Shown piece after piece: positions 18,639 to 30,553 of a stretch of DNA of 64,000 nt (the stretch's first letter is position 1; the number at the start of each line of letters is the position of its first letter). Under the pieces are notes generated by a model. That model had not been told where the DNA came from, ran no database searches, and saw only the letters and a program-made list of their open reading frames with translations. This DNA is from an uncultured delta proteobacterium. GTDB taxonomy: Bacteria > Desulfobacterota > Desulfobacteria > Desulfobacterales > B30-G6. The stretch spans positions 96,001 through 160,000 of the forward strand of contig CAWGLD010000007.1 of NCBI GenBank assembly GCA_963823335.1. Direction: 5' to 3'. The position numbers and the translations under genes were made by a program.

Positions 18639-19256
18639 TCATTCGAATGCAAATAAATAGTTGAGTCCGTCCCTCAGGAACAGCACCCCGAATCCGATCA
18701 GAACCAGTCCCAGTAATCTGATAATCATTTTATAGTGGCGACTTTTCAAAAGGTTTCGGGATCTTCCCGAAACAATTGCTATCACGATTTTGGATCCCAC
18801 CAGCAGCACATAAAAAGGAAAGATAAAGGCGGCAGCTGAAACAAGCGACGTGCTGGATGCTTTTAAAACAAGGGGTCCGCCGATGGATGTCCAAAACATA
18901 TAGGGACTAGGGTTCAGGAAATTGACCATCAGACCCTTTTTAAGGGATTTGGGATCGACATCTTCCTGGAGATTCACGGTCTTGAAACGGACACTGTTCA
19001 GGCCAAGATAAAACAGATACAGTCCTCCGAACATGGATATCACACCCAGGGCAGGTGCCATGTCTGAAAAAACGGATAGAAACAGTAGACATGCGATGAC
19101 AATCGGTGTGTCCGTCAACAAGGGGGCCAGAGCTACTTTGACCCCCTCCCGGATGCCATGTTTGAGGGTCTGGGAGATAACCAGGGTGAGCATGGGACCG
19201 GGGGACAATCCCGCACTCAGCCCCAATATCATTCCCGAAATAAACAGGGACTTCAT
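18639..19256 (-). CDS. LysE family exporter
   Basis: SPGP and NFLNP motifs; hydrophobic, about 205 aa. Confidence 0.85.
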   Translation of the reverse strand: MKSLFISGMILGLSAGLSPGPMLTLVISQTLKHGIREGVKVALAPLLTDTPIVIACLLFLSVFSDMAPALGVISMFGGLYLFYLGLNSVRFKTVNLQEDVDPKSLKKGLMVNFLNPSPYMFWTSIGGPLVLKASSTSLVSAAAFIFPFYVLLVGSKIVIAIVSGRSRNLLKSRHYKMIIRLLGLVLIGFGVLFLRDGLNYLFAFE

Positions 19257-20062
19257 TCTTTGATACCCTGATTCATGCTGCCCTGAACATACCCTGCCAG
19301 ATCGACAGCAATAAAGGAGAATCCGATCTTTTTCATTTTTTCCACCAGATTTCGGCGCAGGGCACTATCCTGAAAGCGGGGGATATCTGCCTCCGAAACC
19401 TCGATGCGGGCGATGGTATCATGATACCTGACCCGGCAGGAGCGAAAACCTTCCCTATGGAGCACCGTTTCAGCGGCGTCCACCATTTCAAGCCGCCTCC
19501 CGGTCAATCGGGTGCCATAGGGTATGCGGGATGCCAGACAGGCCATGGCCGGTTTATCCCAGGTACTCAGGTTGAGTTGTTTGGAAAGAACCCGGATCTC
19601 CTGTTTTCCGAGACCCGCCTCCAGTAAGGGTGCCACGATTCCCAACTCGTCGGCAGCCCGAAAACCTGGCCGAAAATCCTGCAGATCATCTGCATTGGCA
19701 CCATGGGCCACATGGGCCAAACCCAATTCTTGTGCCATGGACAATAAATCCTGAAAAAGAAATCGCTTGCAGCGATAACACCTGTCACGATCGTTCTTGA
19801 CGAAAACGGTGTCCTCCAGCGCCCGGCCTTTGATGGTGACATGCTGTACACCCATAGCTCTGGCCTGTTCCATGGCAGCTTCTTTTTCATGGGCCGGCTG
19901 AAGAGCAGATATCGCCGTAACGGCAACGACCCGGTCTTTTAGCACATCGTGTGATATCTTCAGCAGGAGTGTGCTGTCAACGCCTCCGGAGAAAGCAACC
20001 AGAACCGATTTCAAGGCAGTGATTCTTCTCATGAGGGCTGTTTTCTTTTGTGCTAAATCCAA
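19253..20062 (-). CDS. larE: ATP-dependent sacrificial sulfur transferase, LarE family
   Basis: AFSGGVDS, RCYRCK, RPG, ACLASRIPYG and RVRYH motifs. Confidence 0.85.
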   Translation of the reverse strand: MDLAQKKTALMRRITALKSVLVAFSGGVDSTLLLKISHDVLKDRVVAVTAISALQPAHEKEAAMEQARAMGVQHVTIKGRALEDTVFVKNDRDRCYRCKRFLFQDLLSMAQELGLAHVAHGANADDLQDFRPGFRAADELGIVAPLLEAGLGKQEIRVLSKQLNLSTWDKPAMACLASRIPYGTRLTGRRLEMVDAAETVLHREGFRSCRVRYHDTIARIEVSEADIPRFQDSALRRNLVEKMKKIGFSFIAVDLAGYVQGSMNQGIKE

Positions 20063-20174
20063 TGCCTGACTCTCATTAAAAAAATGTTTACAAAAAGGTC
20101 TTGATAATTTATAGTTTTTAACAATTCGAAACGTTCTTATACGTCAATTTCATTGTATTTTAAAGGGGTTTTTC

Positions 20175-21161
20175 ATGGGAAAAAACAGCTTGATCAAGTC
20201 CACCACCAAAAAGAAGCCTGCCACTGAAAAAGAAGACACCACCAATAAGGCCCAAAAGGACTCTGCCGCAGCAAAAAAAACGGCCAACCCAAAATCAGAT
20301 GTCAAGCCCGCAAAAAAGACAACCAAGGCCAAAGAAACCGCCAAGAAACAGCCGGCCGTAAAGGCGAAAGCCACCACCACCGATATAAAGAAAGCAGCAC
20401 CCGAGGCGAAAGCCCAGGCCCCGGCCAAACAGCCGCCCAAGGCCCGCATCGAGAAAAAAACCCTGCCGACGGAAAAGACATCCCCTTCGAGCGCACCGGC
20501 TTCCACCGACCACATGCCGCCCTCTGCAGCAAAACCGGCCGATCCAGCCGACAAGATGCTGTGTTACGGTGGGGCTGGATTTGTTCTTCTGGTACTGATC
20601 GTGGTGATTGCCAGCTGGATGAACACCCACAACTATTATGTCAAGTCCGGTAACGATGTCGTTGATATCTGGCAAGGTAAATTTTCACCCAAAGGAGCCA
20701 GACATCTCATCAGCTTTCCTGGATTGCAGCTGGCCGAACCCATCAAAGACACCTATACCGCCAAGGAAGTCTTTCCCATTATCTACCAGTACTATCTCGA
20801 CAAGGCCGATATGCTCCTCGATGTACCCGGGGTGCCCGATTTCGACGGCGTAAAAGGGAATCTCCACAAAGCCCAGGAATATGCCAGCACCCGGGAGATG
20901 AAAGCGGTCATCCAGAGCCGTCTCGACGCCATCAACCTCATGGTGCTGCTGTACAAGGCCGATGTCGCCGCCAGCAAAAACACCCCGGAGGATCTGAAAG
21001 CAGCCAGGGACTATCTCAAGGAGGCCCTTTCTTATCGGGTGGATGAACTGGAATCCACACGGATCAAACAGAAAGCCGATGCTGTCAAGATAAAACTGGA
21101 AGGTCTAAATTCCACGGCTGCCGGAACAGCTGCGGGTAAAGAAGATAAAAAGCAGCCCTAA
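20175..21161 (+). CDS. hypothetical membrane protein: Lys/Ala/Pro-rich N-terminus, one TM helix, helical C-domain
   Basis: 328-aa ORF; low-complexity basic first ~125 aa, TM at about aa 129-149. Confidence 0.7.
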   Translation: MGKNSLIKSTTKKKPATEKEDTTNKAQKDSAAAKKTANPKSDVKPAKKTTKAKETAKKQPAVKAKATTTDIKKAAPEAKAQAPAKQPPKARIEKKTLPTEKTSPSSAPASTDHMPPSAAKPADPADKMLCYGGAGFVLLVLIVVIASWMNTHNYYVKSGNDVVDIWQGKFSPKGARHLISFPGLQLAEPIKDTYTAKEVFPIIYQYYLDKADMLLDVPGVPDFDGVKGNLHKAQEYASTREMKAVIQSRLDAINLMVLLYKADVAASKNTPEDLKAARDYLKEALSYRVDELESTRIKQKADAVKIKLEGLNSTAAGTAAGKEDKKQP

Positions 21162-21191
21162 CGACCCTGTCGTGCTGAGATCGTTTCCACC

Positions 21192-22989
21192 ATGAAATAC
21201 AAGCAAGTCATCAGCGCATATATCCGCCTTTGGATGTGTGTTCCCATTGCGTTACTGATTCTGACCCCGATGATTGCCCGGGGTATGGAGTCTTTTCCCA
21301 AGCCGGGATGGCAGGATCGCCCGAATCCCATTGCCGGCAGCGATGCTGTTGTGGGAGGGGAGATCGCCATTTTCGCCGGGCAATACCCCAAAAGCCTCAA
21401 CTACTATCTCGACAACAACAGCTTTACAGTGGAAGTCTTTGGTGCCATGTTCGAGACACTGCTCTCCATGAATCCCATCACCCTTGAATACGAGCCCGGC
21501 CTGGCAGAAACATGGCGTATCTCCGATGATAAGAAAACATTCATTTTCTCGATTCACAAGAGCGCGCGCTGGAGTGACGGCCGCCCCATCACCGCCCATG
21601 ATGTCAAGTGGACCTTTGACACGATTCTGGATCCGAAAAACCTGACCGGCCCTCACAAGGTCAGTCTCGAGCGGTTTTCATCCCCCACGGTATTGGACGA
21701 GCACACCATTCGTTTCCAGGCCGAAGATGTGCACTGGATGAATCTGGGCGCCGTGGGTGGTTTTAATATCTTACCCAAACATGTGTTTGAAGGAAAAGAT
21801 TTCAACAAAATCAATTTTGAGTTCCCTGTGGTCTCCGGTCCCTATGAAATCGGTCTCATCGACGAAGGAATCTTTCTGACCCTGGAGCGCCGTGAAAACT
21901 GGTGGAACATCCATGCCCAGCGTTCACGGAACACCGCCAACTTTCAAACAATGAAATTCAGGTTTTATGCCGAGAGAGAGAATGCCTTCGAAGCCTTTAA
22001 AAAAGGACAGTTCGACCTGTTTCCCATCTACACCTCCCGGCTGTGGGTCAATGAAACCAAAGGTGAAAAATTTTCCAAAGACTGGATCGTAAAACAAAAA
22101 ATATTCAACCTGAATCCCATCGGTTTCCAGGGCTTTGCCATGAATATGCGCAAACCGCCCTTTGATGATATCCGGGTTCGAATTGCCATGGCCCATCTTC
22201 TGGACCGACCCAAGATGAACAGCACCCTCATGTACAGTCAGTATTTTCTGCATCGTTCCTACTTTGAAGATCTTTATGATAAAAACCACCCCTGCCCAAA
22301 CCGCCTGGTTGAATTTGACAAGGCCAGAGCCAGAGACCTGCTGAAACAGGCCGGCTGGGCGGTCAACCCGGCCACGGGAATTCTGGAGAAAGACAACCAG
22401 ACGTTCTCCTTTAAATTCCTGACCCGGCAAGCATCCACGGACACCTTTCTGGCCATCTATGCCGAAGATTTAAAAGACGTGGGCATCGAGTTGATCATCG
22501 ACAGGAAGGACTGGGCTGCCTGGGCCAAAGACATGGATGAGTTCAACTATGAAATGACGTGGGCCGCCTGGGGATCAGGGGTCTTCAAGAACCCGGAAAG
22601 CATGTGGTCCTCCAAAGAAGCCGAGAGAAAAAGCGGCAACAACATCACGGGATTCAAAAACACTGACCGTGGACACCCTCATTGAAAAGCAGAAAAGCAT
22701 TTTCGATGTTCAGGAGCGCAACGCCATTTACAGGGAAATAGACCGGATGATCTACGATGCGCACCCCTATGTACTGTTGTGGAATATCAACTATACGCGG
22801 CTCCTGTACTGGAATAAATTCGGTACACCCCAAACGGTTCTCTCCAAATACGGTGATGAAACCAGCGCGTACTGGTATTGGTGGATCGACAAGGATTCGG
22901 AGGCGGATCTGACCGATGCCATGCGCCAGGGATTGTCCCTGCCCCCCAAAGAACCCAACATTTTTTTTGATGAGATGTTTTCAGAATGA
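21192..22989 (+). pseudogene. ABC transporter peptide-binding protein (family 5, YejA-like), split by a frameshift at about 22668
   Basis: WSDGRPITAHDV, SGPY and RVRIAM motifs; ...NITGFKNTD continues as VDTLIEKQ in the next frame (GAC-C-GTG). Confidence 0.8.
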
Positions 22990-23014
22990 CAGTATTCTCG
23001 TATCACAGGTTTGG

Positions 23015-23033
23015 GAGACTGTCGAAAAAGTCC
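23015..23033. mobile_element. possible isolated IS terminal repeat
   Basis: GAGACTGTCGAAAAAGTCC resembles IS1182/IS5-type ends and marks the shift to AT-rich DNA; no partner end or transposase seen. Confidence 0.3.
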
Positions 23034-23111
23034 AAAAACAGTGGTTTAAGTAGTTTAATATTAAAATTTAAAATAGACGGGTTTCATGTGGATTTTAGTG
23101 CTTATCCGTAT

Positions 23112-23330
23112 TTACGGATAATTTTTCGAGTCTGAATCTCCAACGACAGATGTCTGATCTTCAACCCAGCGGATATCGCCCGTTTTTGTTAAAAAGCGAT
23201 ACTCCTGTGTGTATTCTTCAACATCCTCGAGATGTTTCTGCAAAGATTCTACTTCTGTGGATCGAATCCTCAGTGACTGCAACTCTTTTATAAGTTCTCT
23301 TTTTGATTTCTGCAGATCTGCTTTTATCAT
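23112..23330 (-). pseudogene. remnant of a PAS/PAC sensor protein
   Basis: Coiled-coil leader KSKRELIKELQSLR joined directly to the PAC motif EYRFLTKTGDIRWVEDQT, then a stop. Confidence 0.6.
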
Positions 23331-23420
23331 AGATCTCCTCCGAATCTAACATGACGTCCTATTTTGATTATACGCTTTCTCAAAAAAATTTGGCCCAATT
23401 TCTGTGTTGGCCCCTTGCTT

Positions 23421-23474
23421 CAACTACATATTGTATTTTTATTTCTTGACATACAACATATAGTATACTATGAT
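23421..23474 (+). promoter_or_regulatory. sigma70 promoter overlapped by tandem NrdR-box-like sites
   Basis: TTGACA (23446)-N17-TATGAT (23469); ACTACATATTGT (23423) and ACAACATATAGT (23453), 30 bp apart. Confidence 0.65.
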
Positions 23475-23558
23475 ACGAAAAAATATTTTAAATATTCAGC
23501 AAGCCTACCTCTGAACCGTGACAATATCATGATTATAGAGGTTCTAAAATATTATTTG

Positions 23559-23600
23559 AAACCTCCCAAAGAGATTCCTGGTCTCTCAAGAGGTTTTTTT
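23559..23600 (+). terminator. intrinsic terminator inside the leader of the parA-like gene
   Basis: AAACCTC..GAGAT-loop-GTCTC..GAGGTTT followed by a T-run. Confidence 0.55.
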
Positions 23601-23611
23601 ATTCTGGTATA

Positions 23612-23771
23612 TTGAAGAACCTCATAGCAAGCAACGAGAAATGTTCTGCCGTGCGCATTGCTTCCCAGCGACACTAAGGAATTCTGTCAGATTTTGATTC
23701 GTTGGCTAACCTCGCGACATGTGAAGCACTGCCACAGGCAGAACCCACGGGGAATACGCTCGCTGTTGCGG
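23612..23771 (-). mobile_element. PATE-like element, 160 bp, with an internal insertion
   Basis: Same ends (TTGAA|CCGCAAC ... GGTTCTTCAA) as other copies; about 80 extra bp in the loop of the TTCTGCC/GGCAGAA hairpin. Confidence 0.7.
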
Positions 23772-23834
23772 TTCAAGTTTGAACCATTTTTTTTCCGATT
23801 TTTCAAATCAAACAAAGTAGGAGGATTGGAGAAA

Positions 23835-24911
23835 ATGAGAACAATTTCGATTGCCAATCAAAAAGGTGGCTGTGGTAAGACGACCACCGCAATCAATCTA
23901 TCCGCCTGTCTTGCCCATAGGGGTAAAAGAGTACTTCTAATCGATATGGATCCTCAAGGTCACGTTGCGTTGGGGTTGAATATTGACAGCAACGATAAAG
24001 AGAATACAGTCTTTAGTGTCCTGGAGCCTTCCAACGGCAGCCGACTGTCGCTTGCCGATATTTCCGAAAACGTTGCAGAAAACTTCGATGCCGTGCCCGC
24101 AGATATTTCACTCAGCACCCTGGATCAGCACCTTTCAATGGTTGAGGGCAGAGAGACCCGCTTGAAACACGCAGTCAGCCGGCTTTATTCATTGTATGAC
24201 ATCATTATCATAGATTGCCCGCCGAGTCTTGGATTACTGACATTCAACGCCCTTATTGCCTCATCAGAAGTGATCGTGCCCATAGAGATGAGCTTGTTTT
24301 CTTTGCACGGGATCGGCAGACTCATGGAAATCATAGCGTCCATCAAGAAGAAAACCGGCCATGAAATCCATACAAGAGTTTTTGGAACAATGGTTGATAA
24401 GCGCACAAGAATCGCGAGGGAAGTGCTGGAAAATATTAGAAACCATTTTGGTGACACCATGTTTGAAGCGGTCATTCGTTCCAATGTCACCTTGAAGGAG
24501 GCCGCCGGGTTTGGGAAATCGATAATAGATTACTCAAAAAAGGCGAGCGGGTTCAAAGATTATATGATGCTTGCCGACGAAGTTCTTTTAGAGAAAGGAA
24601 CGGAGCATAGTCTGAACGTCGAGGATGACGAATCAATGTTCTTGGAATCGAATCTGGAAAAGCGCTTTTCCTATTATGGACCTGAAGCAAACTCCGTAAA
24701 GATCGGAGGAAGTTTTAACAATTGGAACCCATCCGATGAGTTTCGTATGGAACGTGATGAATATGGCACATGGACAAAGAAGATCTCTCTCAGACCGGGC
24801 ACCTATCAATACAGATTTATTGTCGATGGTGAATGGGTCGAAGATCACAATAATTCGAATTATATACATAATGCCTATGGTGGCCACAATTCGGTTTTGG
24901 AAATTCGGTAA
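23835..24911 (+). CDS. ParA/Soj-family ATPase fused to a C-terminal glycogen-binding CBM48 (AMPK-beta-like) domain
   Basis: NQKGGCGKTTT deviant Walker A, DMDPQG, IDCPPSLG; C-terminal GSFNNW...W...L.PGTYQYRFIVDGEW..D...NSVL; start MRTISIANQK after AGGAGG. Confidence 0.9.
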   Translation: MRTISIANQKGGCGKTTTAINLSACLAHRGKRVLLIDMDPQGHVALGLNIDSNDKENTVFSVLEPSNGSRLSLADISENVAENFDAVPADISLSTLDQHLSMVEGRETRLKHAVSRLYSLYDIIIIDCPPSLGLLTFNALIASSEVIVPIEMSLFSLHGIGRLMEIIASIKKKTGHEIHTRVFGTMVDKRTRIAREVLENIRNHFGDTMFEAVIRSNVTLKEAAGFGKSIIDYSKKASGFKDYMMLADEVLLEKGTEHSLNVEDDESMFLESNLEKRFSYYGPEANSVKIGGSFNNWNPSDEFRMERDEYGTWTKKISLRPGTYQYRFIVDGEWVEDHNNSNYIHNAYGGHNSVLEIR

Positions 24912-24924
24912 AAGGACATCCTAA

Positions 24925-25473
24925 ATGGAAAAAAAGAGTCTTGGCAGGGGTCTTGAGGACATTGCGGATATTTTTATATCACAGAACAAGCAAAATATTC
25001 CTACGGCTGATTCAACATCGGAAAACATGAGAAAGGTGGTCAATGAATCCTCTCCCGGACATTCTTTTGCAGCGTCGGAGGAAAGCGTGTCTTTTTCTGA
25101 AGACGATATTATAACGGTAATAAATGAAAGACTCAGGGTGAATAGGAATTGCCTCAACACCGAGCGGCCTTTGGAACATGATCGCTCAGAAAAGGATGAT
25201 AAGCTCCGGACCAGGAATATGGAAAAAACCCCGTCAGATGACCCGGACGTCTGTGAAGTCACGGAACATGTTACCAGCAAAAAGAAAATGGGTTACGTAA
25301 ATACCCCCGATGTTCAAAAAAACATCGTAAAATCGCTTTTCCAGCATCTTCGTCGGAACTACAACATAAAGAATATTGAGTTGGTAAAAGAGAACGAGGT
25401 GTCCCGTCCAGGAATGAAAATTACAATTGAAAAGAATATTTTGATTTATGTCAAGGAGCAAGAAAACCATTAA
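24925..25473 (+). CDS. hypothetical protein with ParB-like N-terminal 'LGRGL' peptide
   Basis: MEKKSLGRGLEDIADIF; starts 13 bp after the parA-like stop; AAGGA RBS. Confidence 0.75.
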   Translation: MEKKSLGRGLEDIADIFISQNKQNIPTADSTSENMRKVVNESSPGHSFAASEESVSFSEDDIITVINERLRVNRNCLNTERPLEHDRSEKDDKLRTRNMEKTPSDDPDVCEVTEHVTSKKKMGYVNTPDVQKNIVKSLFQHLRRNYNIKNIELVKENEVSRPGMKITIEKNILIYVKEQENH

Positions 25474-25479
25474 TTAATT

Positions 25480-25798
25480 TGGATCATCTCCCAAAGAGTT
25501 GATCCAAATTAAGGATTCAAGGATTCCAGGGGTCCAGGGTTCGAGTGAGATGAAGTAAGGCATCAGATAAATGCTTAAGCATTATAAAGAGTTAAAAGTT
25601 GTGAATTGGAAACGCAGCCTATGATATCCGGTGATTTGGATTATATGAAAAAGGAAAAGCTTCAGGAATTAAGAGATGAGATTGGGGATGTAAAGAGAAT
25701 GCTAAAAGCGATGATCAAATCCCTGGAAAACAAACACTTGAATCCTTGAATCCTGGACTCCTTGAACCCTTTCTCCCAACTTATTGGGAGAAGATCCA
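25480..25798. repeat. inverted-repeat cassette around the deleted four-helix-bundle gene
   Basis: Outer TGGATC(A/T)TCTCCCAA inverted repeats (25480 / 25798); inner octamer arms GGATTCAAGGATTCCAGGGGTCCAGGGTTCGAGTG and CACTTGAATCCTTGAATCCTGGACTCCTTGAACCC. Confidence 0.8.
25571..25749 (+). pseudogene. internally deleted four-helix-bundle gene
   Basis: MLKHYKELKV joined out of frame to CELETQPMISGDLDY...IGDVKRMLKAMIKSLENKHLNP*, the N- and C-terminal signatures of the family. Confidence 0.75.
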
Positions 25799-25805
25799 TT
25801 ATATT

Positions 25806-26777
25806 TCAGGTGAAGAGGTGACAACTCACGCTATGACCTGCCTTGTCCGTTTCTCTTGGGGCCTCTTTGCGGCAGACCTCCATAACGTCCGGGCATCGGG
25901 GATGGAAGCAGCACCCTTCCAGGGGGACGGATAGAGAGGGGGGGCCCTCCTCAATCGATGGCCATTGCGCCCTGTGTGATCCCGGACGCGGGACGGCTGA
26001 TATGAGCGCTTTTGTGTAGGGGTGCCTGGGGTGAAAAACGATGTCACCTGTCTTTCCAAACTCTACAATTCGTCCCAGATACATCACCGCAATCCGGTTG
26101 GAGATGTGACTGACAACACTCACATCGTGCGAGATAAACAGATAGGACAGGTGGTACTTCTCCCGGAGATCCAGAAGCAGATTGATAATCTGGGCCTGTA
26201 TGGACACATCCAGGGCACTGACCGGCTCATCGCAGACAATAAAATCAGGCTTCAGCGATATGGCCCGGGCGATGTTGATGCGCTGGCGCTGACCGCCCGA
26301 GAATTCATGGGGGTAGCGGTATAATGCATCGGCATCCAGACCCACATCTTTCAGGATGCCCCTGGCCGCTTCCTCACGGTCGCCACGGATCAATTTAAAT
26401 TCGGATATCCCTTCCGTAATGATGTCCAGAACATTCATGCGCGGGTTCAGGGACGACAGCGGGTCCTGAAAAATGATCTGAATTTTGCGCCGCAAGGCTC
26501 GCAGTTCTTTGCGGGACAGACCGGCCAGATCCCTGCCCTGGAACTTTATATGACCCGCATGAATCTTTTCCAGCCCCACCAGGGTCCTGCCGAGAGTCGT
26601 CTTGCCGCAGCCGGATTCCCCCACCAGACCGATGGTTTCCCCTTTCTGCAGCACAAAGGAGATACCGTCCACCGCCCGGACATGACCGATGGTCCGGGAC
26701 AGAATGCCCCTGCGAACAGGAAACCAGGTCTTGAGGCGGTCTACTTCAATCAGCGGGTAATGGTTTATTGAGTTCAT
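25806..26777 (-). CDS. oligopeptide ABC transporter ATPase (OppF/DppF-like)
   Basis: [20 protein letters not shown] and HPYT motifs; C-terminal Cys cluster. Confidence 0.93.
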
Positions 26778-26898
26778 TGCGTTTGTTGGGGTTACAATGC
26801 CAGGAAGCTGGGAGGCTGGGAAGCTATGATATTGCTATCAGCTACCCTTCAAACCTCCAACCCTTGTATCCCCCTTCAACCCTTTCTCGTCTGTTAGT

Positions 26899-27876
26899 TT
26901 ACTGGAATTTCCCCGCAATAAAACATGCCGCCCTGTGGTTGTCTGATACAGGAACCAATTCCGGCATCTCAGTTCTGCATTTTTCGAACGCAAAGGGGCA
27001 TCGATCACGAAACCGGCACCCAGACGGATAATGCTCCGGAGAGGGAACACTGCCGGGTATTACAGCCAGCCGATTTCCCTTGCCATCAGACAAACTGGGA
27101 ATCGATTTTAAAAGACTGTAGGTATAGGGATGCGACGGCGCCGAAAATATGTCCTCCATCCGCCCCTCTTCAACGATTCTGGATGCATACATCACCAGGA
27201 CCCGATCACACATTTCCCATACCACGCCCATGTCGTGCGTAATCAAAAGAATGGAAGTATGTTCCGTCTTCATCTCACGAATCAGTTGAAACACCTGGGC
27301 CTGTATGGTCACATCCAGGGCTGTTGTGGGCTCATCGGCAATGATCAGCTCCGGATTCATCATCAAGGCCATGGCGATCATGATGCGCTGCTGCATTCCC
27401 CCTGACAACTGGTATGGATAAGCATGCATCTTTTCCTCAGCATCGGGTATCTTTACCTTTCCAAGCCATTCAAGCGACATGTTCCAGGCCCTTTCTTTTG
27501 GTGTAGACTGGTGAATCTGGATCGTCTCCACCATCTGCTGACCGATTCTCTGCAAGGGGGACAGGGCTGATAATGGCTCCTGGAATATCATGCTGATTTC
27601 TCTGCCGCGTATCTTACGAACCGCCTCTATGTCGGCCATCAGAATATCGTTGTCTTTGAACAGAACCTGACCGCTCTCGATATTTCCCGGTGGAGAGGGG
27701 ATCAGACGCAGCAGGCTCAAAGCACTCACCGATTTCCCACATCCGGACTCCCCAACAAGACCGACGACCTCCCCGCGCTGAATGTCAAAGGACACATTGT
27801 CCACCGCGGTAAAATAAGCGTCATCGGTTTTGAATGACACCTTCAGATTCGATACGGAAAGAAGTGTCTGCTGCAT
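26899..27876 (-). CDS. oligopeptide ABC transporter ATPase (OppD/DppD-like)
   Basis: [16 protein letters not shown] and ADEPTTALD motifs. Confidence 0.93.
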
Positions 27877-29510
27877 CAGATCAGCCTCGTGTATCGCCTG
27901 GGATCATACGCATTGCGGACACCTTCACCCACAAACACACCCAGTAGCATGACAGTAAACAGAGCAAGGGATGGATAGAGAATCAGCCACCATGCCCATC
28001 GATACTGCTGGGCCTGATAAAGCAATTCCCCCCAGCTCGGCGTCGGGGACGGCAAACCGAAACCGAGATAGTCCAGCGCAGCCAGTGATCCGATAGCGCC
28101 CACCAGTGAAAAGGGGAAAAAGGTAATCACCGGAACCATGCCGTTGGGTAAAATATGCTTGAATATTATCTTAAAGGATGAGCCTCCCATGCATTTGGCA
28201 GCCTCCACAAAAGGAAGTTTTCGCAGACGCAGAAATTCCGCCCGAATGTAGTAGGATATCCCGATCCAGTTAAAGAGCCCGTAGCAGAACAACAGCAGGG
28301 AAAAACTCCGTCCGTAGATGGACCCCATGAGTATCATGATGTACAAAAACGGCAGGGCGCTCCAGATTTCAATGAACCGTTGACCTGATATGTCCAGTAG
28401 GCCGCCATAATAGCCTTGAAGTGCTCCGGCGGCAATACCCAGCGCCATGGACCCCACAACAAGCAGCAATCCAAAAGACATGGATGTTCTCAGCCCGTAA
28501 AGAATACGTGACAGAACATCGCGCCCGGCTGCGTCAATACCCATGAGGTGTCCCTTGACCGGTCGAAAAGGGAATCTGACGTCCTCCTTTAGAAATTCAA
28601 CGCGGTGCTTTCGACTGCCCATGGAAATCGTGAGGTTGTCCACGGGGCCATAATATCGATTCTGGACATTTTCTTTAATGACCGTCTGCTGAGCATCAGA
28701 GAGCGAGTCCCAGACATTTTTCGTCCCGGCCGTGGATACCTCCCCGAGCAGGGCCAGGTTTTCATCAAACCGAAGCTCGAAGGCATGTCCCTCGCCATCA
28801 ACACCCGGTGCTATCCCTTCCCTGAACGTAATTCTGACTGTTTTCGGCTTGCGCGCTTTTTGCGCGTGGGTCGACAGGGAGGCCTTGATATTGATGCCCT
28901 GGGGTCCTGTGGTCTCCATGGAAAGAAACGGTGCTTCTTTACCGTCAAACCTGAGCGCCATGGCAGCCCTGAGCTCCAATGGAATCTTTACATAATCGGT
29001 GATCGGCTTGTTCTGGAGGTCCTTGTCTGCCAAACCCACAAATGGGCCAAACCTGAAAGATTTCGCAATGGATAAATCATCTCGGATATCGGCTGTCCCC
29101 ACCATGGGAAGCAGTTTAAATGCGGCAATGACTTGATCGGATACATCGATAAGCGCCGGGTCGAGGCTTTGAAACGGGCCGTAGGGAATCGGTGGAAAAA
29201 CCATGAAATTCTCAGCTTTGTTCAAAAATTCAGAATTTGTATTCATCTGGTGGTAATCAGGCCGTGTATGCTTGCCGTTTCCCAAAAAGGTGTCTTCAGG
29301 ATAAAATTTGAGCACAGGAAAATAAGACTTGCCCTGAAACTTTACATAGAGGGGAACATTGTTGCAGATGATCTCGGAGCCCAGACTGAACAGATACAGA
29401 AGCGCAAGAATCCATAACGAAATATAGGCGCGCCTCATCTCCTTGAAGCGTGTAATTCGCCTGCGGGTCATAGGATTTTTAACAAGACGCGTTATCATCG
29501 GGATCTTCAA
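27876..29510 (-). CDS. ABC transporter permease (YejE-like) with a large extra periplasmic domain
   Basis: GRDVLSRILYG, EAA loop and SWGELL; 544 aa. Confidence 0.88.
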   Translation of the reverse strand: MKIPMITRLVKNPMTRRRITRFKEMRRAYISLWILALLYLFSLGSEIICNNVPLYVKFQGKSYFPVLKFYPEDTFLGNGKHTRPDYHQMNTNSEFLNKAENFMVFPPIPYGPFQSLDPALIDVSDQVIAAFKLLPMVGTADIRDDLSIAKSFRFGPFVGLADKDLQNKPITDYVKIPLELRAAMALRFDGKEAPFLSMETTGPQGINIKASLSTHAQKARKPKTVRITFREGIAPGVDGEGHAFELRFDENLALLGEVSTAGTKNVWDSLSDAQQTVIKENVQNRYYGPVDNLTISMGSRKHRVEFLKEDVRFPFRPVKGHLMGIDAAGRDVLSRILYGLRTSMSFGLLLVVGSMALGIAAGALQGYYGGLLDISGQRFIEIWSALPFLYIMILMGSIYGRSFSLLLFCYGLFNWIGISYYIRAEFLRLRKLPFVEAAKCMGGSSFKIIFKHILPNGMVPVITFFPFSLVGAIGSLAALDYLGFGLPSPTPSWGELLYQAQQYRWAWWLILYPSLALFTVMLLGVFVGEGVRNAYDPRRYTRLI

Positions 29511-30553
29511 TTCTCTTGAAAATTAATTCTCGGATCGATGAGAACATAACAAAAATCTGACAGGATATTGCCGATGAGCCCCAATATGGCGGTAATGGAA
29601 AGGATCCCCATGAAAACCGGATAATCTCTCCCCACAATGGCTTCGAGACTCAAGCGACCCATTCCGGGGATTTCAAAGACCTGCTCGATGATCACGGAAC
29701 CGGCAAACATGACCGTGAGGATGGATCCGAAACCGGTTGCAATGGGAACCAGGGAATTCCTCAGGGCATGTCCCCAGATGGCCCGGGAAAAACTGCCGCC
29801 CTTGGCCAGTACCGTACGGATATAATCTTTCCCGATCTGCTCAATGAGAGAATTTTTCATTAGCAGTGTCAGCACGGCGAAATTGCCGATCACATAGCAC
29901 AGGATCGGCAAGAACATGTGCTGGAAAATATCCTTTGTTTTGCCCCAATACGTGAGTTGGCCAAACTGGTCCGAATGAAAGCCTGAAATCGGAAATATAT
30001 CCCACAACCCTTCCACCGTACCGGCAAGAAGCATTTTGAGCACCATGCCAAAGGCAAAAGGCGGAATAGCATATCCCACAAAAACGACGATGCTCGAAAC
30101 AATGTCAAAAGATCGGTCGTGGTGTAAGGCCTTGAAAATGCCCAGAGGGATACAGACCAGATAAGATAGAATAAAACCGGTGATCCCAAAAACCAGGGAC
30201 ACCTTGAATCGTTCCTGGATCAACTGCCACGATGTTTTGTTGGGAAATCGATAGGATTCCATCTTCATACCCATACGATCCGTTACAAGCCACTTCCAGT
30301 ATCTTTTATAGAACGGCTGATCGAACCCGAAATGCGCTTCAATGGCTTTGCGCTGATCCGCTGAAATACTTGTGGCTGCCCCGGCACCTCCACCGGATTC
30401 CGAGGCACCGATACCACCACGCATCTGCATGATGGCCTGCTCCACAGGACCCCCGGGAACAAACTGAATGACGGCAAAACAGAGCAGCGTAATCCCCAGG
30501 AAAGTGGGAATCACGAGTAGAAACCGCCGGATGAAATAATCGATTCTTTCCAT
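29507..30553 (-). CDS. ABC transporter permease (YejB-like)
   Basis: YFIRR..IPT..GIT, QFVPGGPVEQ and HALRNSL motifs. Confidence 0.9.
   Translation of the reverse strand: MERIDYFIRRFLLVIPTFLGITLLCFAVIQFVPGGPVEQAIMQMRGGIGASESGGGAGAATSISADQRKAIEAHFGFDQPFYKRYWKWLVTDRMGMKMESYRFPNKTSWQLIQERFKVSLVFGITGFILSYLVCIPLGIFKALHHDRSFDIVSSIVVFVGYAIPPFAFGMVLKMLLAGTVEGLWDIFPISGFHSDQFGQLTYWGKTKDIFQHMFLPILCYVIGNFAVLTLLMKNSLIEQIGKDYIRTVLAKGGSFSRAIWGHALRNSLVPIATGFGSILTVMFAGSVIIEQVFEIPGMGRLSLEAIVGRDYPVFMGILSITAILGLIGNILSDFCYVLIDPRINFQEN

Follow-up and report, generated by a model that had tools for sequence, protein, structure and literature searches.

A Soj/ParA-type ATPase fused to an AMPK-beta-type CBM48, with a ParB-like-peptide partner, as a candidate system for positioning glycogen granules in Desulfobacterales and other phyla

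We analyzed a 64,000-nucleotide stretch of DNA (referred to here as the window; all plain positions are counted within it) from an uncultured member of the Desulfobacterales (assembly GCA_963823335.1, contig CAWGLD010000007.1, positions 96,001 to 160,000 of the forward strand), focusing on two adjacent genes that join a chromosome-partitioning type of ATPase to a carbohydrate-binding module (CBM). The first gene (23835-24911, +), preceded by a Shine-Dalgarno-like GGAGGA just 5' of its start, has a translation that opens MRTISIANQKGGCGKTT and stops after residue 358; it encodes a Soj/ParA-type ATPase with a C-terminal CBM48 of the AMPK-beta type. Thirteen bases further on (24912-24924), a second open reading frame (ORF; 24925-25473, +) encodes a partner protein of 182 amino acids (aa) that opens MEKKSLGRGLEDIADIFIS. 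An initial annotation made from the letters alone had described the pair, and its coordinates, lengths and motifs (KGGCGKTTT, TMVDKRT, GSFNNW, and YQYRFIVDGEW) are all correct by translation. The two genes comprise the following parts.

23835..24590 (+): Soj/ParA-type ATPase domain, residues 1-252 (AAA_31 186 bits; K10-G-G-C-G-K15-T, D37/D39, Walker B D127, R190)
24591..24665 (+): acidic and variable linker, residues about 253-277 (from sequence; varies in length, gapped in alignment A3)
24666..24911 (+): AMPK-beta-type CBM48, residues about 278-358 and stop codon (stacking Trp W297 and W334)
24925..24984 (+): partner residues 1-20, ParB-like putative ParA-binding/activating peptide KKSLGRGLEDIADIFIS (conserved in 58/60 partners)
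24985..25257 (+): partner residues 21-111, variable, acidic, predicted disordered (AlphaFold2 predicted local distance difference test score, pLDDT, <50 for residues 1-112; variable in alignment A1)
25258..25473 (+): partner residues 112-182 and stop codon, small conserved domain with helix 128-143 and hairpin 150-175 (AlphaFold2 pLDDT 76-85)

Domains and conserved residues of the fusion protein

In Pfam, the 358-aa protein matches AAA_31 over residues 1-178 with 186.1 bits (cut-off 27; E 7e-55) and CbiA over its N-terminal part with 76.3 bits (cut-off 25.4), while its ParA, RepA, and MinD matches in NCBIfam are all sub-threshold. Among solved structures, the ATPase is closest to 8ray_B, a ParA family protein (170 bits), and next to the Soj proteins of T. 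thermophilus (146 bits) and H. pylori (123 bits); MinD (57 bits) and McdA (55 bits) score lower. In alignment A3, which holds 37 fusion proteins drawn from different lineages, the residues N8-T16, D37-H43, D127, and R190 are invariant (37/37), and a family-specific Cys13 lies inside the deviant Walker A motif K10-G-G-C-G-K15-T16. The initial annotation had called the ATPase complete and the linker behind it acidic, and both descriptions hold.

Published functional residues were transferred to the fusion via pairwise alignments with T. thermophilus Soj and a solved ParA. The catalytic residues reported for motif 2 of M. xanthus ParA are D58, D60, and N64 (PMC12462528), and both catalytic Asp are kept and invariant in the fusion (D37 and D39), as is the Walker B D127. 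Three of the six hydrophobic residues that form the ParB-binding pocket of M. xanthus ParA are kept as well (L132, L134, and F137), and R190, R202, and K236 provide basic residues in the window protein at three of the five patch positions by which Soj binds DNA. The remark of the initial annotation on the DNA-binding Arg of Soj has to be corrected here, as this Arg is present as the family-invariant R190.

The CBM48 assignment, including the likeness to AMPK beta and the stacking Trp proposed at the outset, is well supported. Residues 284-358 match Pfam AMPK1_CBM (PF16561) with 53.7 bits (cut-off 26.8), and CBM_48 (PF02922) is matched with 32.3 bits (cut-off 22.4). When the last 103 residues were compared with solved chains, the CBM of a pullulanase scored 41 bits and those of AMPK beta1/beta2 about 31 bits (E about 2e-6), followed by branching enzymes and SEX4. 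The GSFNNW and DGxW motifs of the fusion align identically with the AMPK beta CBM chains, so that W297 and W334 correspond to their Trp (GSFNNW and DGQW). These two Trp of AMPK beta are described as key glucan-binding residues, and mutation of the equivalent Trp is reported to abolish starch binding in another noncatalytic CBM48 protein (PMC4339375). In A3, G292, F294, N295, W297, Y326, W334, D337, and G349 are invariant (37/37), and at least 90% of the rows share N352 and S353; the predicted ligand site of the CBM is conserved from Desulfobacterales to Planctomycetes. Because ATPase catalytic residues and CBM residues are both invariant across the 37 fusion proteins, both halves of the fusion are under selection. 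The CBM48 forms the C terminus of the protein right up to the stop codon, and an amphipathic membrane-targeting helix of the MinD type is not there.

The partner peptide and its scaffolds

A species-genome scan confirmed 508 relatives, and the locus counts given below rest on the best 80 of these 508. The fusion was recovered as one intact ORF in 73 of the 80 loci, to which the pairing counts refer. At 63 of the 73, a same-strand ORF that starts near the ParA stop codon carries the peptide motif at its N terminus; the partner is thus conserved beside the fusion, a point on which the initial annotation had made its proposal depend. The others comprise one locus whose homologous partner has a degraded motif (L042), one where the contig ends at the fusion (L022), one with an unrelated long ORF 3' of the fusion (L045), and seven, all from Planctomycetes, that have no same-strand downstream ORF. 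At two loci (L010:3992-5119 and L014:848-1975), the stop codon of the ParA-CBM gene has become a sense codon, and the ORF, 18 codons longer, overlaps the start of the intact partner in another frame.

The partner consensus, K-K-x-L-G-R-G-L-[E/D]-D-I-S-x-[I/L]-F-L-S, is present in 58 of 60 collected partners, and its central position is basic (Arg or Lys) in 57 of these 58. The L6-x-R8-x-L10-x-x-I13 spacing equals that of L11, R13, L15, and L18 in the ParB motif of M. xanthus, with Ala here at the fifth position (I19), and agrees with the LGRGL-type peptide of the initial annotation. Mutagenesis of the M. xanthus motif showed that its hydrophobic residues are required for ParA binding and its Arg for ATPase activation (PMC12462528). 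The ParB encoded by the window's own genome has a related sequence, LALGKGLGALI, at the corresponding N-terminal place. A complex prediction with two ParA-CBM chains, two ATP, two Mg, and partner residues 1-45 gave a score of 0.01 and a mark of 0.32; run without controls, it has no bearing on binding either way.

Beyond the peptide, the partner resembles no described family. It has no match in Pfam or NCBIfam (best E 0.17 and 0.037, far under the cut-offs), and neither a ParB_N/CTPase domain nor a helix-turn-helix (HTH) motif was found in it with Pfam, NCBIfam, or a profile search of 1.84 billion proteins, as the initial annotation had stated. That profile search returned only 99 relatives of the window's partner, all of them 45-215 aa long and without fused forms. 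In the window's clade (alignment A1), the partners are 122-191 aa long and consist of the peptide, a variable acidic stretch, and a conserved C-terminal domain of ~65 aa; a sister clade has a Cys-rich insert in place of the acidic stretch. AlphaFold2 predicts one helix and a hairpin for residues 118-177 (pLDDT 76-85). No structural match for this C-terminal domain was found with Foldseek against the PDB at an E of ≤0.001, the ESM Atlas yielded no usable match, and a wide VIA-align comparison reached only noise, with a best Z of 3.0 overall and of 2.1 for a MinE chain. The domain may serve as a dimerization or cargo module.

Partners of other lineages are built differently. Nitrospirae, Omnitrophota, Auribacterota, and others have as partner a ~300-aa homologue of FlhG/FleN/MinD (4rz2, E 1.4e-17; 5j1j, E 8.6e-14; 1hyq, E 4e-6). 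Alignment A4 collects these FlhG-like partners (L051:5109-6014, L046:3187-4101, L087:3673-4575, and 14 others), which carry the same N-terminal peptide, lack the Walker A motif as judged by eye, and align to the ParA profile with an hhalign probability of 54; such a partner looks like a pseudo-ATPase companion of a ParA. In Acidobacteria, the partner is ~213 aa long, and its core (pLDDT >88) is predicted to adopt a NucS/EndoMS-like nuclease fold (2vld and 5gke, both E 6e-6). In these NucS-like domains (alignment A2; L047:5157-5798 and eight others), the Lys of the E-x-K motif is missing, again as judged by eye, and three loci encode the domain as a separate third gene (L041:5938-6612, L046:4106-4783, and L087:4575-5234). 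The long partners of Planctomycetes show weak similarity to both the FlhG-like and the NucS-like modules within one chain, with the NucS-like module at the C terminus.

The peptide is the sole part common to the different partner types (hhalign probabilities of 92.9 and 94.8). A comparison by hhalign of A1 with A4 was limited to this peptide, as was that of A1 with A2, and the idea, suggested by eye, that the C-terminal domain of the window's partner is a shortened NucS-like domain is therefore unsupported. Since the scaffolds differ by lineage and the peptide is constant, we view the system as one ATPase and one peptide on interchangeable scaffolds. At L043, a related 321-aa ParA without CBM48 (L043:4001-4963) is accompanied by an FlhG-like partner (L043:4989-5897) that carries the LGRGL peptide; because this pair exists without the CBM, the module appears to be either an add-on to an older ParA-partner pair or a part lost in L043.

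Distribution, leader, and neighborhood of the module

In the window's own genome (4.37 Mb in 11 contigs, completeness 93.9%), contig C1 carries a plain parA with a 292-aa parB (ParB_N 114 bits) after it. C5 adds a third ParA-like gene and C4 a second, weak match to ParB_N; all ParB_N genes of this genome lie on contigs other than that of the fusion. Because this canonical parA-parB pair is separate, the fusion is an extra, orphan ParA, as the initial annotation had supposed, and not the only parA of the genome. At least one plain ParA is likewise present in each of 10 other fusion genomes from other lineages.

At least 120 close relatives, which are all those listed, are full length with both domains at 58-99% identity, under the source names “chromosome partitioning protein,” “AAA family ATPase,” or “hypothetical.” According to record titles, the best 80 loci come from Desulfobacterales, Nitrospirae, Acidobacteria, several classes of Planctomycetes, Omnitrophota, Auribacterota, Margulisiibacteriota, and Chromatiaceae, and carriers include records labeled as the cultured species Desulfosudis oleivorans and Desulfocicer vacuolatum. 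Judged from these sequences, the two-domain architecture and the pairing are far beyond chance, because each of the 120 listed relatives has the architecture at full length and the pairing persists in different phyla. A quick maximum-likelihood tree was restricted to the first 250 residues (58 distinct rows, after removal of 9 identical ones from 67). In it, a single branch (SH-aLRT 99) splits the 40 fused ParAs from 18 plain ones of the same genomes, and the fusion may have had a single origin.

A sample of 121 genomes from the window's own order was searched with the CBM piece as the query (E ≤ 1e-10). Matches occur in 33 of the 121 genomes, mostly as stand-alone CBM frames of ~100 aa. The window's own genome also has three further small stand-alone AMPK1_CBM ORFs (C6:68491-68751, equivalent to L089:1471-1767; C1:1181736-1181906; and C1:1259612-1259854), of which the 98-aa one scores 62 bits.

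Upstream of the fusion gene lie two further features.

23446..23474 (+): sigma-70-like putative promoter, TTGACA, 17-nucleotide (nt) spacer, TATGAT (11/12 score)
23500..23604 (+): conserved structured leader, two hairpins, of which hairpin 1 has an invariant loop and the second is terminator-like with a U-run behind it (pattern search)

The promoter block is conserved 5' of the module in all eight sequences of alignment A5, and the leader precedes the ParA-CBM gene in the window and at 23 of the 80 loci; promoter block and leader together occupy 23421-23610. The invariant loop of hairpin 1 contains ATG. Single-sequence folds recovered the terminator hairpin in five of five cases with z-scores of -2.5 to -3.9, and by eye its stem differs on both sides between two clades. 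RNAalifold on alignment A6 supported three pairs only, because MAFFT had misaligned the 3' arms of the two clades against each other, and no Rfam match was found within 22900-25900 at an E of ≤0.1. Possible identities of the leader are an attenuator, an element resembling a riboswitch, and a small RNA. A second terminator-like hairpin (23770-23785, with a run of eight T) lies ~50 nt 5' of the ParA-CBM start codon, in an insert lacking from most related loci.

The region of ~23414-25600, on a contig of ~409 kb, is the sole stretch common to the window and its closest loci, and the flanks differ; G+C falls to 0.44 across 22-26 kb, compared with about 0.47-0.53 elsewhere. In these respects, the ParA-CBM module behaves as a portable cassette. 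The neighbors scanned (19253-30550) encode a PP-loop ATPase, a Lys/Ala-rich unnamed protein, a broken SBP_bac_5 protein, a PAS fragment, and an opp-type ABC transporter, with a minus-strand ABC ATPase gene 3' of the partner; as first noted, no parB is among them. The SBP_bac_5 solute-binding gene (21192-22989) is split into frames of 497 and 106 aa that overlap at 22669-22685, and the PAS_3 fragment, 71 aa long, stands alone at 23112-23330 (-); together they look like local gene decay beside an inserted module, at the G+C dip to 0.44. The unnamed protein (20175-21161, +) has 328 aa, a long Lys/Ala/Pro/Thr-rich N-terminal half, one hydrophobic stretch, and no Pfam match.

Other loci have neighbors of their own. 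In a sister clade, a conserved third gene of 226-245 aa, without a Pfam match and lacking in the window, follows the partner (L015:5686-6420 and 15 other Desulfobacterales loci). Directly 5' of the fusion, a gene for a MerR_1 regulator is found at seven loci (L051:3468-3938 and six others, from Nitrospirae, Chromatiaceae, and a gammaproteobacterial metagenome-assembled genome [MAG]), and a gene with a bifunctional nuclease domain (BFN_dom) is 5' of the fusion at five Auribacterota-type loci (L054:3364-3897 and four others).

Proposed function, alternatives, and known systems

We hypothesize that the gene pair works in the manner of ParA systems to position or partition glycogen granules, a reading that we hold tentatively and rate at a little under an even chance. 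The Soj-like 358-aa ATPase would dimerize on ATP, with each subunit bearing a flexible C-terminal CBM48 that binds alpha-glucan (glycogen), so that the link to the cargo would be built into the ATPase itself. The ParB-like peptide of the partner would dock at the ParA dimer interface and trigger ATP hydrolysis, and the small C-terminal domain of the partner would probably pair two peptides or anchor them. As the ATPase attached in an ATP-dependent manner, most likely to the nucleoid, and was set free again by the partner, granules would be spread through the cell and shared between daughters. The published need for juxtaposed ParB tails (PMC12462528) would fit a peptide-pairing role of the C-terminal domain, although this is by analogy with ParB.

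The domain anatomy, the conserved catalytic and sugar-stacking residues, the orphan status, and the partner peptide shared across phyla are direct observations. From them we infer glycogen binding, DNA binding, stimulation of the ATPase, and the positioning outcome. The glycogen synthase domain PF08323 was found in all 14 fusion genomes tested (10/10 from other lineages and 4 in the order sample), and the window's own genome has a glgA-like Glyco_transf_5 gene (119 bits) that adjoins a 707-aa CBM_48 frame. The initial annotation had seen a difficulty should carriers often lack glycogen synthesis; these findings ease it only weakly, since the synthase is widespread in the sample and in the controls, as detailed below.

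Several observations weigh against the proposal. PF08323 is common anyway, being present in 93 of the 121 order-sample genomes and 12 of 14 controls, and no glg gene within 4 kb of the fusion appears in the recurrent neighbor clusters of the 80 loci. The fusion is patchy: frames of at least 350 aa occur in only 4 of the 121 order genomes (G000, G047, G111, and G119), two genomes of the same family have no fusion-length frame with the CBM query, and L043 has the same partner type and no CBM. In the ATPase, an invariant His (H43) stands where motif 2 of M. xanthus ParA has Asn (N64), three of the six pocket residues are changed (Q98, S169, and T174), and the acidic site that receives the ParB Arg is lost, with S61, S92, and H99 in place of acidic residues and an aromatic F60. 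In classical systems, it is the partner and not the ATPase that binds the cargo, and the mechanism would therefore be no plain copy of them.

Two positions of the DNA-binding patch, S216 and T219, are also nonbasic in the window protein. At the former, Lys/Arg is called highly conserved in the H. pylori Soj paper (PMC6393308), and at the latter, an Arg-to-Glu change gives a DNA-binding-deficient M. xanthus ParA (PMC12462528). Most other family members in A3 have Lys at the position of T219. DNA binding is therefore plausible for the family and uncertain for the window's own protein. For the family, R190, which never varies, and the Lys that most members have at position 219 lead us to favor the nucleoid as the matrix, and the partly eroded patch of the window protein keeps alive a variant in which the granule is the surface. 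Of the initial functional reading, in which the pair tethers granules to the nucleoid and distributes them or couples a ParA cycle to carbon status, the anatomy stands, the nucleoid tether is weakened by S216 and T219, and the function itself is deduced from sequence.

MinD binds the membrane only as a dimer, via its C-terminal helix. By the same logic, the glycogen granule itself could be the matrix: an ATP dimer would join two CBM48 and bind firmly, and the peptide would trigger hydrolysis and release. The cycle would then pattern or control access to the surface of the granule instead of carrying granules along DNA. We consider this unlikely, though deserving of attention. The CBM sits at the extreme C terminus behind a flexible linker, where MinD has its membrane helix; S216 and T219 are nonbasic; the partners in other phyla are FlhG/FleN/MinD-like (4rz2, E 1.4e-17; 5j1j, E 8.6e-14); and the order of peptide, linker, and small alpha/beta domain in the window's partner is like that in MinE, which is a likeness of layout only and not homology. 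However, the invariant R190 and the majority Lys at 219 fit retained DNA binding, the ATPase is nearest to chromosomal Soj and not to MinD (170 versus 57 bits), and the arrangement would have to presume that a single CBM48 binds too weakly alone. If it were true, a polysaccharide granule would be a third kind of surface for the ParA/MinD family, after nucleoid and membrane, in many phyla.

Less probable still is a role in sensing carbon status, in which the CBM48 would be regulatory, as in AMPK, and glucan would tune a ParA cycle whose other cargo is set by the partner or the nucleoid. The AMPK-beta type of the domain, the lineage-specific C-terminal modules of the partners, which could define cargo, the CBM-less relative with the same partner type (L043), and the conserved structured leader, which suggests regulated expression of the operon, are all consistent with it. 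The gene neighborhood, however, indicates no other cargo, and the flanks differ even among the closest loci; a linker this long and flexible is also better suited to a tether than to allosteric control.

We give slightly less weight again to a CBM48-like domain that binds another glycan or a protein, so that the module positions a cargo other than glycogen. CBM folds can be reused for other ligands, and Pfam, NCBIfam, profile, and structure searches recognized no cargo domain in the window's partner, but the glucose-stacking residues of AMPK beta are invariant in 37 of 37 aligned members, and the nearest matches (pullulanase, AMPK beta, branching enzyme, and SEX4) all bind alpha-glucan. It is very improbable that the gene is a regular parA serving DNA partition on a mobile element or secondary replicon, with an incidental extra domain: the Soj-like ATPase, the G+C dip to 0.44 over 22-26 kb, the nonsyntenic flanks, and the patchy distribution would fit, but neither ParB_N nor HTH nor another DNA-binding family is matched by the partner, which has only 99 short relatives among 1.84 billion proteins, transporter genes flank the module and no replication or transfer genes are in the scanned flanks, the contig is ~409 kb long, and the CBM is conserved across phyla.

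To our knowledge, how bacteria place glycogen granules and share them between daughters is largely unexplored, and ParA-family systems have been described that act on chromosomes, plasmids, carboxysomes, and chemoreceptor arrays. A literature search, with subscription journals and some preprints outside its scope, found no ParA-family protein acting on glycogen granules, in keeping with the initial annotation, which knew of no characterized system of this kind. A conserved ParA with a built-in glycogen-binding module would offer a direct genetic and biochemical handle on granule placement and a natural case of a cargo link on the ATPase rather than on the partner, and one putative activating peptide on three unrelated partner scaffolds speaks to the modularity of such systems. 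The proposal is readily testable with purified proteins, and carriers with cultured-species labels are at hand.

Compared with known systems, the fusion resembles chromosomal ParABS in its Soj-type ATPase (scores of 170 bits with 8ray_B and 146 bits with the T. thermophilus protein), its deviant Walker A motif, and its Soj Arg (R190). Unlike in ParABS, the partner has no ParB_N/CTPase domain or HTH, the ATPase bears a CBM48, the motif 2 Asn is His, two DNA-patch positions are nonbasic, and the true parAB pair of the genome is separate. As in McdAB and other orphan ParA/MinD cargo systems, an extra ParA-family ATPase lies beside the gene for a small, partly disordered partner, which is what McdB is to McdA, and the presumed cargo is, as in McdAB, a cytoplasmic storage or metabolic body and not DNA. 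It differs from McdAB in that the cargo module is on the ATPase itself, solved McdA scores 55 bits against 170 for ParA, and the partner has no family match.

In MinD and FlhG, attachment to a surface relies on an element at the C terminus, and a short peptide at the partner's N terminus acts as the switch. MinD/MinE and FlhG/FlhF are thus alike to the proposed system in being SIMIBI ATPases with a C-terminal surface element and a peptide switch, and the partners in other phyla are homologues of FlhG/FleN/MinD. In contrast to MinD/MinE, the fusion has no membrane-targeting helix and the window's partner no detectable MinE homology (Z 2.1), and, unlike in FlhG/FlhF, the FlhG-like partners appear by eye to be without Walker A. 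PTST and AMPK beta also use a noncatalytic CBM48 with two key Trp as a targeting module to starch or glycogen (PMC4339375), whereas they are eukaryotic, have coiled coils or kinase-scaffold regions, and have no ATPase. Placed beside these systems, the gene pair would add to the positioning systems of the ParA/MinD family one whose cargo module is new and built in and whose partner belongs to a new family.

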